A DNA stretch of 64,000 bases from an uncultured Clostridiaceae bacterium (GTDB lineage Bacteria; Bacillota; Clostridia; TANB77; CAG-508): the NCBI GenBank assembly GCA_946493085.1, contig CAMMAC010000005.1:945-64944 (forward strand), given 5' to 3'. How positions within the stretch are numbered: position 1 is the stretch's first letter; each line of letters begins with the position of its first letter. Shown here in pieces: positions 22,215 to 25,394 of this stretch. The notes under the pieces are model-generated. The model was given only the letters and a program-made list of their open reading frames with translations, was not told the origin of the DNA and did not search any database. The translations under genes were made by a program, and so were the position numbers.

Positions 22215-23898
22215 AAGGAATAAAATAGCCCTATTGTTTATTCTATTAACATCTATTTTTGTATGCCTGCCATTACTCAGTTCTCATTTAGATATCACTT
22301 ATGATGATGGGATACAACATATTTGTAGACTAATGGGAACGTATAGGTCTATAGAAGAAGGGCAGAGTTTTCCTGTTATTATGTCTGCCTTCTGCAATGG
22401 ATTTGGTTATTCATGGAATTTGTTTTATAGCCCTTTTACAGCATTTGCGCCGCTTCTTTTTAAATGGATTGGATTTTCTTTTTCAGGGTGCATCAAGCTA
22501 TTTATGTTTGCGGTTACCTTTTTTACAGGACTTTCCATGTATCAATGTGTAAAAGAAATCAGTAAAAATTCTAAAATTGCCATTGTGGCGGCTATGCTTT
22601 ATATTGTGGCACCATATCGATTAACCGATATGTACATTCGTTATGCATTAGCAGAACTAACTTCTTTTGTATTTTTACCATGGATATTTTTAGGATTATA
22701 CCGTATTTTCTATCAAAAGAGGAAAAGGGATTATTTATTAGCCATTAGTACGATAGGGCTCATTTTAACCCATACAGTAATCACCATGTATACAGCTATC
22801 TTTTGTTTTATTTATGTACTATTGCATATCAAAAGATTAAAAAATAAAAATGTGTTAAAGCAACTAATTGTAAATTTAGTGTTTGCTGTTGTCATTACAA
22901 GCTTCTTCTGGATGCCACTTTTAGAGGCAAAGCAAAGTGCGGAATATGAAGTATTTCAGCCTGGTAGAATGGAAAGAACAGAAGTACTAATTGCCTATAA
23001 ATTAGATATAACAGATTTGTTATTTACTAAACCAGATGGTGGAATGATTTATGAAATAGGTTTCTTAAGCTTAATAGGGCTTGCACTAACGCCAATAGCC
23101 ATCAAAAAAATGAGAAAAAATAAAAAGCAAATGGCATTTTTATATAAAACCTATATTTTTATGCTCATAGCAGGAATTGTTTCTGTTATTATGAGTTTAA
23201 AGATTTTCCCATTTGAGCATTTACCATCTATTTTGAAAATGCTACAATTCAGTTTCCGTATGTTAGAATTTTCTTGCTTTTTCTTTAGCGTAGTAGTGAC
23301 TATCAATTTAGGAATGGCAATTCGAGATTTTAGCATCAAAGATGTTGGCGTATTGGGAGTAGTGCTTATGATATTAACCTCCTTTTTTAGCACACATTTG
23401 CGTTATTTAGAAGATTTTGATGAAAATGTGTTGTGGCCAGCAGTTCCACTAACAGCAGAAACAGGAAGAGTACATGCCGGAATGGCAAGTATGGAGTATT
23501 TACCTAGTAAGGCATTCCAAAACAGAAGCTATATAGAAGAAAGAGACCAAAGTGTAAAAGTACTACAAGGAAGTGCTCAAATAGAAAACGAACAAAAAGA
23601 AAATACAAATTTAAATTTTGAAATACAATATGTCGTAGAAGAAAGTTTGCTAGAATTGCCATATATCTATTACCCTGGTTATCAAGTAATTCTGCAAAAA
23701 GAAGATGGTAGTAAGGTAGAACTAAAAACCCTAGAAACAGAAAATGGATTTGTGGGAGTAGAAATTCCTGTATTAGAAAAAGCTACAGTGCAAGTACAAT
23801 ATACAGGAACATGGATAATGAAAGTATCTGCTGTTATCTCTTTCATCGGGCTTTGTGTTTTAGCGGGGCTAAAAATAAAATATAGCCCAAGAATATAG
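22195..23898 (+). CDS. polytopic GT-C-like membrane protein (YfhO/ArnT-like, family not resolved by eye)
   Basis: 567 aa, more than 10 TM segments. Intact paralog of the preceding gene, with a 20-nt overlap. Confidence 0.75.
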   Translation: MEKSRNRRNKIALLFILLTSIFVCLPLLSSHLDITYDDGIQHICRLMGTYRSIEEGQSFPVIMSAFCNGFGYSWNLFYSPFTAFAPLLFKWIGFSFSGCIKLFMFAVTFFTGLSMYQCVKEISKNSKIAIVAAMLYIVAPYRLTDMYIRYALAELTSFVFLPWIFLGLYRIFYQKRKRDYLLAISTIGLILTHTVITMYTAIFCFIYVLLHIKRLKNKNVLKQLIVNLVFAVVITSFFWMPLLEAKQSAEYEVFQPGRMERTEVLIAYKLDITDLLFTKPDGGMIYEIGFLSLIGLALTPIAIKKMRKNKKQMAFLYKTYIFMLIAGIVSVIMSLKIFPFEHLPSILKMLQFSFRMLEFSCFFFSVVVTINLGMAIRDFSIKDVGVLGVVLMILTSFFSTHLRYLEDFDENVLWPAVPLTAETGRVHAGMASMEYLPSKAFQNRSYIEERDQSVKVLQGSAQIENEQKENTNLNFEIQYVVEESLLELPYIYYPGYQVILQKEDGSKVELKTLETENGFVGVEIPVLEKATVQVQYTGTWIMKVSAVISFIGLCVLAGLKIKYSPRI

Positions 23899-23900
23899 TC

Positions 23901-24008
23901 GAAAAATGTCAATGTCTCATTTAAGTCAGGGCCTAAATGAGACATGTCACAAAAATGTCAGGGATAAGTGGGACATGTCCCAGAAATATCAGGGATGAGT
24001 GGGACACC
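23901..24008 (+). repeat. tandem ~30-nt units of the AAAAATGTCAGGGATAAGTGGGACATGTC repeat family
   Basis: Units aagtcagggcctaaatgagacatgtcac, aaaaatgtcagggataagtgggacatgtccc and agaaatatcagggatgagtgggacacc. Contains the 12-nt palindrome GGGACATGTCCC. Related copies at 38165-38245 and 61411-61437. Confidence 0.8.
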
Positions 24009-24037
24009 TTGACGTAAACCCAAAAATGAGATAAAAT
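24009..24037 (+). promoter_or_regulatory. sigma-A-type promoter of der-plsY-gpsA
   Basis: TTGACG-17 nt-TAAAAT. The -35 box directly abuts the last repeat unit. Confidence 0.55.
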
Positions 24038-24065
24038 GAGGCTGTAAGAAAAAGGAGTGAAAAGA

Positions 24066-25394
24066 ATGAAACCAACTGTTGCTATAGTAGGAAGACCAAA
24101 TGTAGGAAAATCTACCTTTTTTAATTATATTGCAGGAAAACGTATTTCTATTGTGGAAGATGAGCCGGGTGTTACAAGAGATAGGGTTTATGCTGAAGCA
24201 AATTGGAGAGGAAAATCGTTTTATTTAGTAGATACAGGTGGAATTGAGCCGAAAACTAATGATGTCATTTTATCACAAATGCGTGAGCAAGCAAACATTG
24301 CCATGGAACTTGCAGATGTGATTGTATTTATTACAGATGTAAAACAAGGTGTTACGGCAGATGATAAGGAAATTAGTTTGATGCTAAAAAAATCTAAGAA
24401 GCCTATCATTTTAGTATGCAATAAAGCAGACCAATATGGTGAGACTATGCCAGAGGTATATGAATTTTATCATTTGGGATTAGGAGATCCTTATCCGGTA
24501 TCCTCTGTAAATGCTATTGGCATTGGTGATGTTTTGGATGCTATTTATGAAAAATTACCAAAAGAAGAGGAAAACCAAGAAGACGAAACGATTAAAGTAG
24601 CTGTAATAGGAAAGCCAAATGTAGGAAAATCTTCTTTAATTAATAAAATTCTAGGAGAAAATAGGGTTATTGTAAGTGACATAGCAGGAACTACCAGAGA
24701 TGCAATTGATTCTCCTTTTGAAAACGAATTTGGAAAATATGTTTTTATTGATACAGCAGGTATTAGAAGAAAAAGCAAGGTAGAAGAGAAAATTGAAAAA
24801 TACAGTGTTATGAGAAGTTTGATGGCAGTAGAAAGAGCAGATGTGTGTCTTATTTTAATAGATGCGAATGAAGGAGTTACTCAGCAAGACACAAAAATTG
24901 CAGGAGAAGCACATGAAGCAGGAAAAGGTATTATCATTGTGGTAAATAAATGGGATACGATAGAGAAAGATGATAAATCTACAGAAAAATACAAAAAACA
25001 AATTTATCAAGACTTACCTTATTTAGCTTATGCTCCTATTATTTTTATTTCTGCAAAAACAGGACAAAGAGTAACAAAGCTATTTGAAATGATTAATCAA
25101 GTGGCAAATAAAAATGCGATGCGTGTTTCTACGGCAGTACTAAATCAAGTGCTAAATGAAGCAATTGCTATTACACAGCCACCAACAGATAAAGGAAAAA
25201 GGTTAAAAATTTATTACATGACGCAGGCTGCTACAAAACCACCTACATTTGTGGTTTTTGTAAATGATAAAAAACTATTTCACTTTTCTTACGAAAGATA
25301 TTTAGTCAACCAAATTCGTAAAGAATTTGATTTAACAGGTACACCTATTCGTATGATGGTAAGAGAGAAAAGTGATAAGGATGCACAAAAATAA
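24066..25394 (+). CDS. der: ribosome-associated GTPase Der (EngA)
   Basis: Two G domains (GRPNVGKST and GKPNVGKSS) plus a KH-like C-terminus. ATG 24066 has an AAAGGAG RBS. Confidence 0.95.
   Translation: MKPTVAIVGRPNVGKSTFFNYIAGKRISIVEDEPGVTRDRVYAEANWRGKSFYLVDTGGIEPKTNDVILSQMREQANIAMELADVIVFITDVKQGVTADDKEISLMLKKSKKPIILVCNKADQYGETMPEVYEFYHLGLGDPYPVSSVNAIGIGDVLDAIYEKLPKEEENQEDETIKVAVIGKPNVGKSSLINKILGENRVIVSDIAGTTRDAIDSPFENEFGKYVFIDTAGIRRKSKVEEKIEKYSVMRSLMAVERADVCLILIDANEGVTQQDTKIAGEAHEAGKGIIIVVNKWDTIEKDDKSTEKYKKQIYQDLPYLAYAPIIFISAKTGQRVTKLFEMINQVANKNAMRVSTAVLNQVLNEAIAITQPPTDKGKRLKIYYMTQAATKPPTFVVFVNDKKLFHFSYERYLVNQIRKEFDLTGTPIRMMVREKSDKDAQK

Follow-up and report, generated by a model that had tools for sequence, protein, structure and literature searches.

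A lineage-restricted 31-nt extragenic repeat, probably REP/MITE-like, in the genomes of four uncultured gut Clostridia

Main finding and genomes

The stretch of DNA analyzed here, called the window, comprises 64,000 nt (C5:945-64944, contig CAMMAC010000005.1) of the genome of an uncultured Clostridiaceae bacterium (GCA_946493085.1, here G000), and contains copies of a 31-nt repeat unit at three loci, upstream of der, of pta and of a gene for a ZIP transporter. The units belong to a family that is real, extragenic, restricted to one lineage, polymorphic and faster-evolving than its flanks. They colonize intergenic DNA singly or in short arrays, change copy number in register, swap subtypes at a fixed site and are gained or lost between sister species. 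With a probability of roughly 0.6, the unit is best regarded as a dispersed, non-coding, lineage-restricted repeat, selfish or near-neutral, similar to repetitive extragenic palindromic (REP) sequences and miniature inverted-repeat transposable elements (MITEs).

The carriers are four closely related uncultured gut Clostridia, namely G000 and its sister species G007, G044 and G045. G000 is a draft of 1.37 Mb in 47 contigs, with 30.7% G+C and a completeness of 95%, and every genome compared is a draft metagenome-assembled genome (MAG) with a completeness of 75-97%. Gene models are open reading frame (ORF) calls made in this analysis. Units were searched for in G000 with an iterated nhmmer profile at E<0.01 (strict) or E<0.1 (relaxed), and across genomes with a degenerate core pattern, then with the same pattern allowing up to 2 mismatches, the reversed pattern serving as control.

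A dispersed repeat in four sister species

The unit (TGTCyC-AwwwAwGTCAGGGwTAArTGrGACA) is an imperfect palindrome, in which the arms TGTCyCA/TGrGACA form an inverted repeat flanking an invariant, asymmetric center, TCAGGG. Among 114 full-length units from the four genomes, about 20 of the 31 positions are nearly invariant (T1 G2 T3 C4, C6 A7, A11, T14 C15 A16 G17 G18 G19, T21, A23, T25 G26, G28 A29 C30 A31). Subtype A (AAAAAT...ATAAGT) accounts for the majority of units and its single-strand fold is no better than that of shuffled sequences (z -0.3 to -1.4, and +1.2); subtype B (ATTTAA...TTAAAT) forms a near-perfect hairpin of 11-12 bp (z -4.6 at der and -3.9 at pta). The hairpin module that the original prediction had noticed in opposite orientations at der (+) and pta (-) is this type B unit. 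At the freely varying arm pair 5/27 no covariation was found, the pair being complementary in 57% of the distinct units, where independence of the two positions would give about 60%, and because compensatory changes are missing at this pair the unit is taken to be conserved as a sequence and not as a fold. A selected RNA or DNA hairpin was likewise rejected for type A, on the grounds of the shuffle-level folds and the missing covariation.

In G000 the search gave 51 units at the strict and 55 at the relaxed threshold, grouped in 38 loci, and this genome-wide count places all of them in intergenic DNA: none of the 38 loci lies inside an ORF, though ORFs make up 87% of the genome. The 114 arrays of the four genomes consist of 72 solo units, 20 pairs of the ++ type, 10 of the -+ type and 9 of the +- type, two +++ arrays and one +-- array, so that head-to-tail arrays, with their 31-nt period, outnumber inverted pairs by 22 to 19. 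Neighboring units adjoin without a gap, so that palindromes such as GGGACATGTCCC arise where they meet. Within the window, a 29-mer allowed up to 3 mismatches has 2 matches (one exact and one with 2 mismatches) against none in 100 shuffles, and repeat grouping joins three copies in one family (D10). Because neither the shuffles nor the reversed-pattern control gave a single match, a chance origin is excluded. The Rfam 15 covariance models gave no match at E<=1 in the window at 23600-24300, and a search of the literature brought up no relevant description of such a family from Clostridia.

The family is confined to the four carriers. The core pattern has 22 matches in G000, 25 in G007 and none in 39 other relatives (23 congeneric and 16 from other families of the order), and with up to 2 mismatches it finds 51 units in G007, 35 in G044 and 36 in G045; the reversed control gave 0 in both searches. 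In a BLAST search with the der locus against 42 genomes of the genus, only G000, G044, G045 and G007 gave matches that include the repeat, with an identity of 91-96% at this locus; it was not found in the remaining 38 species, whose identity in der is about 78%. When one genome from each of 185,579 species was scanned, the only multi-copy carriers were three MAGs, all of them among the known carriers, and all other matches were single and about as numerous as would arise by chance in so large a database.

Promoters, placement and conservation of the arrays

The original prediction had described a short repeat abutting the -35 box of unrelated promoters, and had offered two explanations, namely operator or activator sites shared by growth-related promoters, or a REP/MITE-like element, small in size, that itself carries a -35 box or recruits one. 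The comparison of orthologous intergenic regions bears on both, as the repeat was found in the four carriers only and the promoters are conserved. The der promoter is kept as TTGACk-N17-TAtAAAT in about 25 repeat-free congeneric species, and in all four carriers an array lies directly 5' of its -35 box (2 nt away in G000), with three units in G000 and two in G007, G044 and G045, an in-register difference of 31 nt. At pta, the sequence cTTGTACttttt...TATAAT and the A-rich stretch upstream of it are conserved in repeat-free species. The extended -10 promoter of ligA (tTGTATATAAT) is conserved throughout the genus, and the carriers have, in addition, two units within the 5' untranslated region (5'UTR), about 8 nt past the -10 box; in G007 these units have decayed at positions that are otherwise invariant. 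The region upstream of the ZIP-transporter gene cannot be aligned in non-carriers, where the synteny differs.

To judge from these alignments, the promoters of der, pta and ligA existed before the repeat, which appears to have landed beside or inside them, and the repeat would neither supply promoters nor be needed by them. A -35 box carried by the repeat was rejected for der and pta, whose promoters persist, -35 box included, in repeat-free relatives. Of the second explanation, then, the REP/MITE-like character stands, in view of the filled and empty sites, the changes in copy number and the lineage restriction, and the carriage of a -35 box falls at der and pta. Adjacency to the -35 box is itself a local feature: it holds at der and at the ZIP-transporter gene, where the units are 2 nt away, does not hold at pta, where the distance is 24 nt, and is not general across the family. 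The apparent regulon, a motif abutting the -35 box of unrelated promoters, is in this respect a false lead, the relatives indicating that the promoters came first.

Placement follows the space available. Tandem, divergent and convergent intergenic regions are used 16, 9 and 2 times, against 18.7, 5.4 and 2.8 expected from the intergenic length that each class offers (chi-square p=0.23). There are arrays 25-32 nt ahead of a start codon, arrays between convergent genes and arrays more than 150 nt upstream. The genes flanking the arrays are functionally unrelated; they include der, pta, the ZIP-transporter gene, ligA, serS, asnS, argS, pfk, dnaJ, groES, recR, ruvC, spoIIAB, ddl, smc, dinB, pknB/rsgA and cdaA, among others, as well as paralogues encoding pilin-like proteins. 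In one case a unit contributes to a gene end: an inverted unit supplies ddl, which encodes D-Ala-D-Ala ligase, with the final three codons (M-S-H) and the TAA stop (G000 C31:9002-9012), an arrangement also present in G007 and G044. In tandem regions, 11 arrays are co-oriented with the downstream gene, 3 are in the opposite orientation and 2 are mixed, and the 11 co-oriented cases are not independent, since most of them are paralogous pilin-like loci.

A further feature of the surroundings is a block, AAGAAWAAWGTCGAAAA, which adjoins 18 of 36 arrays in G000, 17 of 36 in G007 and 5 of 27 in G045. The 7-bp core of the 0A box, the binding site of Spo0A, is TGTCGAA, flanked by A/T, and Spo0A contacts its G5 (PMC3485338); the core of the block has this sequence, perfect or one-off (TGTCGAA or AGTCGAA), likewise flanked by A/T. 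In G000, which encodes Spo0A at C33:4370-4681, 31 of the 54 TGTCGAA occurrences fall in the intergenic 13% of the genome, an enrichment of about 9-fold, while control 7-mers are about 10% intergenic. Eleven of these 31, together with 8 of the 14 intergenic AGTCGAA (19 in total), lie within 45 nt of an array. The original prediction had reported no match to the Spo0A consensus; this is correct for the unit itself, whose TGTCAGG and TGTCCCA stretches differ from the 0A box in having no G5, but the putative 0A core next to roughly half of the G000 and G007 arrays was overlooked. The likeness extends to every leader of the pilin-like cassettes described below, each of which holds such a putative core, and the difference to G045, where most arrays have no block. 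Intergenic TGTCGAA often occurs as AATAATGTCGAAAA, a sequence also seen in the block beside the arrays, for example at C1:81896/81920, C15:35332, C23:13922 and C33:5482. The enrichment of TGTCGAA would suffice to predict a Spo0A regulon for G000, an uncultured spore-former.

These data also allow the arrays to be weighed as operators, at which a lineage-specific DNA-binding protein, perhaps with Spo0A at the adjacent TGTCGAA, would co-regulate the flanked genes. We hold this to be improbable. Near-invariance of 20 positions around an asymmetric core in the absence of structural covariation would suit a protein-binding site, the 31-nt phasing corresponds to three helical turns, two arrays end 2 nt before a -35 box and one lies just past a -10 box, as activators and repressors typically do, and the clustered 0A-like cores in a genome that encodes Spo0A point the same way. 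However, about 38 congeneric species have the der, pta and ligA promoters without the repeat, and sites of a regulon would be expected to be at least as conserved as their flanks, whereas the arrays are less so: orthologous identity between G000 and G007 is 84% in arrays, 92% in intergenic flanks and 91% in coding flanks, and between G000 and G045 74%, 88% and 88%, respectively (for G044 the values are 85%, 85% and 86%). The decay at ligA in G007 agrees with this. Nor are position and orientation constant, the units being found upstream of -35 boxes, downstream of -10 boxes, in a 5'UTR, at gene 3' ends and in convergent regions. Finally, the flanked genes have no function in common, and about half of the G045 loci are not shared with G000. 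The restriction to four species, the variable position, the unrelated genes and the weaker conservation of the arrays all speak against the proposal that the sites are operators or activator sites common to growth-related promoters. Sites for sigma-54, sigma-H, sigma-E/K/F/G, CtsR, CIRCE, NrdR and the ComR-box were compared by eye, and none of them fitted.

A role at the RNA level, in which transcribed hairpins would act as terminators or insulators between operons or as stabilizers of mRNA 3' ends, is very improbable. For many REP sequences, stabilization of mRNA 3' ends or a similar RNA role has been proposed, and some observations on the present family would be consistent with it: the type B units fold well, one of them being called terminator-like on the minus strand, a T run follows about 20 of the 114 arrays, arrays in tandem regions are nearer to the upstream stop codon (median 40 nt) than to the next start codon (median 123 nt), and the ligA array is in a 5'UTR. 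Against this stand the majority subtype, which folds no better than shuffles and has no compensatory change at pair 5/27, the loop sequence, which is invariant while the stems vary, the absence of a U tract from most copies, and the lack of an Rfam match.

Turnover between sister genomes

Many of the loci in G007, G044 and G045 map to loci of G000, and where a site is polymorphic, gain and loss were polarized by parsimony and repeat-free outgroups. At one site (L126), G045 has a single 31-nt unit and one additional A directly after a stop codon, while the corresponding site of G000 is uninterrupted; because no array of G007 or G044 maps there, this is most simply a gain specific to G045. At another (L121), a unit and 13 nt are inserted after a terminator, compared with G000, and two further loci (L144 and L128) represent filled/empty events similar to L126 and L121. 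In G007 (L057) and G045 (L120), one or two units and a 22-nt block-like stretch occupy the loop of a terminator-like hairpin whose G000 site is empty. Similarly, two units and a reversed leader block of G045 (L133) correspond to an empty G000 site at C1:75043.

Turnover is seen within occupied sites as well. In-register differences of 31 nt in copy number occur at der and at G000 C24 and C11:30130. At pta, all four carriers have an array at the identical site, but its content differs, as the second slot is an inverted B in G000 and an inverted A in G044, with flanks that are 98% identical. At a further locus (L146), a solo unit of G044 (C1:~28150) stands in the place of a 400-nt module of G000 (C11:35068-35471) that comprises a small membrane-protein gene together with a promoter and a terminator belonging to it, and because the flanks are 99-100% identical this replacement must be very recent.

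Several enzyme families were considered as the mover of the units and rejected, since none of them occurs in all four carriers while missing from the non-carrier examined. The Y1 transposases of the REP-associated (RAYT) and IS200 kind (PF01797) have no match in G000, G044 or G045 and are present in the non-carrier G042, and no units lie near the matches in G007. TnpB (PF07282), IS110 (PF01548) and serine recombinases (PF00239) are patchy among the genomes and do not track the carriers, and tyrosine recombinases (PF00589) were found in all genomes tested and hence are not carrier-specific. Where RAYT, TnpB, IS110 or recombinase genes are present, no units were found near them.

In the mechanism that we favor for a selfish repeat, the unit would be recognized in trans by a protein, which most likely is the enzyme behind its movement or copying. 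Such recognition is suggested because the arms TGTC.CA/TG.GACA and the center TCAGGG are strictly conserved without compensatory changes. Copies would persist only where they are tolerated, that is, in the space that separates a promoter from the preceding stop codon or terminator, sometimes in a 5'UTR or in the last codons of a gene. That some of them end 2 nt before a -35 box would then result from the narrow gaps left by an 87%-coding genome and not from a function. In G000, G044 and G007, one or two units together with the Spo0A-box-like block may have become the distal upstream end of the promoter/leader module of about 20 pilin-like genes, and units would since have been amplified with, and left behind by, these cassettes.

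Some points weigh against a selfish mobile repeat. Six filled/empty junctions revealed no consistent target-site duplication, terminal inverted repeat or target motif, and the nearest to a duplication is an ambiguous AAA in A-rich surroundings. Among the five enzyme families searched, none tracks the four carriers, and a transposase could be unassembled in the draft MAGs. The copies are 80-90% alike and none are near-identical, which indicates that there was no recent burst. A residual orientation bias may remain, and the strict conservation of 20 of the 31 positions would fit a functional cellular DNA-binding protein as well. These explanations overlap to some extent, as individual copies of a mobile repeat can be co-opted.

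Association with pilin-like surface-protein cassettes

In G000, G044 and G007, the 0A-box-like block runs on as ...TTATGGAAATAAGTAAC, the start of a conserved leader common to about 20 genes. Their products open with MQKQKNKQKGITLIALVVTIIVLIILAGVSI..GDNGIITQAQ and then diverge completely, and Pfam gave only a sub-threshold N_methyl match and, in one protein, GLUG repeats. Both for single cassettes and for arrays of them, the units lie at the outer 5' edge, and internal cassettes are preceded instead by a terminator hairpin, GAACTTTAGGGACGTTCCTTAAAGTTC. Leader blocks number 28 in G000, 29 in G044 and 44 in G007, but only 2 in G045, and because G045 nevertheless has 36 units, the unit family is independent of the cassette family and wider than it; the units as a mere part of the cassette leader were rejected on the same count. 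Leader-like matches in non-carrier species are chance matches within coding regions.

Cassettes are gained and lost between sister genomes, and leave solo units or unit-plus-block stumps. The site at C1:75043 is empty in G000, holds units and a leader stump in G045 and a 3.25-kb island in G007, the unit end lying at the same flank base; the island of G007 (C35:36077-37429; L266:2177-3529) consists of a pilin-like gene next to a gene for an AAA_14/DUF4143 ATPase. Moreover, where G045 has a solo unit, G000 has 3.8 kb of cassettes (C2 14918-18775), and a solo unit of G045 also stands against a cassette at C9 24528-26032.

It follows to ask whether the units mark the boundary of a cassette system, as recognition sites where pilin-like cassettes enter, are exchanged or leave; solo arrays would then be empty or vacated docking sites or stumps, and a cassette would bring along a promoter module of its own in the form of the 0A-box-like block and leader. 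In both G000 and G007, 13 of the 36 arrays lie within 80 nt of a leader block, always at the outer 5' edge, and internal cassettes have no units, which would agree with such a role, as would the three states of the C1:75043 site and the solo units of G045 and G044 that stand against 3.8 kb of cassettes and a 400-nt gene in G000. On the other hand, units exist in G045 without the cassette family, bare single units insert alone, and homologous recombination between the conserved leader and terminator sequences can explain the turnover. Two-site excision would predict units or half-units at the 3' ends of cassettes, and none were found there, nor was a carrier-specific recombinase found among the families searched. 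A boundary function of this kind is unlikely. An extended version, in which the unit would be the recognition site of a lineage-specific enzyme that both copies bare units and docks or exchanges surface-protein cassettes, in an integron-like manner and with a Spo0A-box leader tying expression to the sporulation decision, is less likely still.

Some observations on the cassettes stand apart from this question. Leader genes in G000 are found at C1:24649, C1:49348, C2:14993/17022, C4:29897, C10:38925, C13:10760, C15:18487, C23:24580 and C31:5033, among others. The leader contains GATATAAT, followed by a hairpin between a Shine-Dalgarno (SD) and an anti-SD sequence, with compensatory changes between paralogues (CCTTCTCG/CGAGGAGG, CCTTCCTA/TAGGGAGG, CCTCTCTG/CAGGGAGG); this pattern suggests translational control through SD sequestration, with a predicted transcription start upstream of the apparent -10 box. 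The hairpin GAACTTTAGGGACGTTCCTTAAAGTTC constitutes a second repeat family, 27 nt in length, which is also found in the window at 40535-40611, there twice in inverted tandem. Its sequence overlaps with the end of several pilin-like genes (final codons ..YEL*), for example at G000 C2:16985-17015 and C11:~47450, and it is probably the terminator of the pilin-like family. At G000 C13:31842-32955, a pilin-like gene is broken about 30 codons in, after the conserved N-terminus, and a tyrosine-integrase gene adjoins the break, which is probably due to an integrated element. At G000 C22:69-190, a unit and an intact leader block precede the promoter of a gene for a dinB-like DNA polymerase IV and not a pilin-like gene; judged from G007 and G044, this locus links contigs C18 and C22.

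The three loci of the window

The three loci exist as originally described, and the der locus has three full units and a partial stretch (Table 1). Unit 2 or unit 3 at der is the extra copy that is not found in G044, G045 and G007. The pta promoter was missed by the consensus scan, as TTGTAC matches only 3 of the 6 bases of the -35 consensus. The unit at the ZIP-transporter locus is also present, in diverged form, in G007 and G045.

Table 1. Repeat units and predicted promoters at the three loci, in window coordinates.
Feature	Position	Strand	Basis and remarks
Partial unit-like, 0A-box-like (AGTCGAA) block, aagaatataGTCGAAAAATgtcaa	23889..23912	+	Shares its sequence with the stop codon (23896-23898) of the membrane-protein gene upstream
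der unit 1, type B, 32 nt, hairpin TGTCTCATTTA-N10-TAAATGAGACA	23913..23944	+	nhmmer (C5 24857-24888); DNA fold -8.1 kcal/mol, z -4.6
der unit 2, type A, TGTCACAAAAATGTCAGGGATAAGTGGGACA	23945..23975	+	nhmmer; weak fold, z -0.3
der unit 3, type A, TGTCCCAGAAATATCAGGGATGAGTGGGACA	23976..24006	+	nhmmer
der promoter, TTGACG-17-TAAAAT	24009..24037	+	Consensus scan, 10/12 matches; cc between array and -35
pta unit, type A	38165..38195	+	nhmmer; begins right after the stop codon of the upstream ORF
pta unit, inverted type B hairpin	38196..38225	-	nhmmer; z -3.9
pta promoter, TTGTAC-17-TATAAT	38250..38278	+	Conserved in repeat-free relatives; A-rich stretch upstream; 24 nt past the array
ZIP-transporter unit, single type A, 1-nt deletion	61406..61435	+	nhmmer (C5 62350-62378)
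ZIP promoter, TTGACT-17-TATAAT	61438..61466	+	Consensus scan, 11/12 matches; tc (2 nt) after the unit

Comparison with known repeat families

The closest resemblance is to REP sequences and to the bacterial interspersed mosaic elements (BIMEs) built from them, which are likewise imperfect palindromes of 20-40 nt, extragenic, solo or clustered, clade-specific, occasionally fused to gene 3' ends and without target duplication (PMC3733652, PMC2817692). The REP superfamilies tagged with GTAG/CGTC are predominantly proteobacterial (PMC3733652), whereas the unit resides in a low-GC Clostridium host, its logo contains no unpaired GTAG/CGTC tag and its TGTC end pairs within the stem. Further differences are the absence of a RAYT gene from three of the four carriers, which are draft MAGs, the 35-55 copies per carrier genome as opposed to more than 100 typical for REP sequences, the lack of a preference for the 3' side of genes (the 16/9/2 distribution given above), the prevalence of head-to-tail arrays over inverted pairs and the poor hairpin of the majority subtype.

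Among MITEs, the Correia/NEMIS elements of Neisseria are about 100-150 bp long, end in terminal inverted repeats, show a TA duplication and in some cases contain promoter elements. The unit shares with them the character of a small, non-coding intergenic repeat beside or inside transcription units, with presence/absence differences between close relatives, but it is 31 nt long, has no signature of terminal inverted repeats or target-site duplication and did not bring the -35 box at der and pta. Of the features of a classical MITE, presence/absence polymorphism is found (L126, L121, L144, L057/L120 and L133 against empty G000 sites), and terminal inverted repeats with a fixed-length duplication are not, the whole unit being one palindrome and not a body bounded by such repeats. 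Because the defining tests of both tagged REP sequences and classical MITEs fail, the unit is placed among the dispersed extragenic palindromic repeats outside the named families.

The cassettes, for their part, recall the vsp/vsa-type families of Mycoplasma, in which variable surface-protein genes have conserved 5' expression modules. Here, about 20 paralogues have a common upstream module, 5'UTR and N-terminal anchor, together with unrelated C-terminal domains that vary between sister species; they differ in that each gene has a full leader of its own, and that neither an invertase nor an inverted pair of sites nor a single expression site was seen. Such fast-evolving cassettes, with a 0A-box-like block and an SD-sequestering hairpin upstream, are a possible model of surface variation in uncultured gut spore-formers. 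As for the repeat itself, the unit family is new, while its kind, REP/BIME-like or similar to a tiny MITE, is already known, and a repeat of 31 nt, of which single units can be acquired, in a low-GC Clostridium, without RAYT and outside the tagged REP superfamilies, bears on how tag-less palindromic repeats spread.

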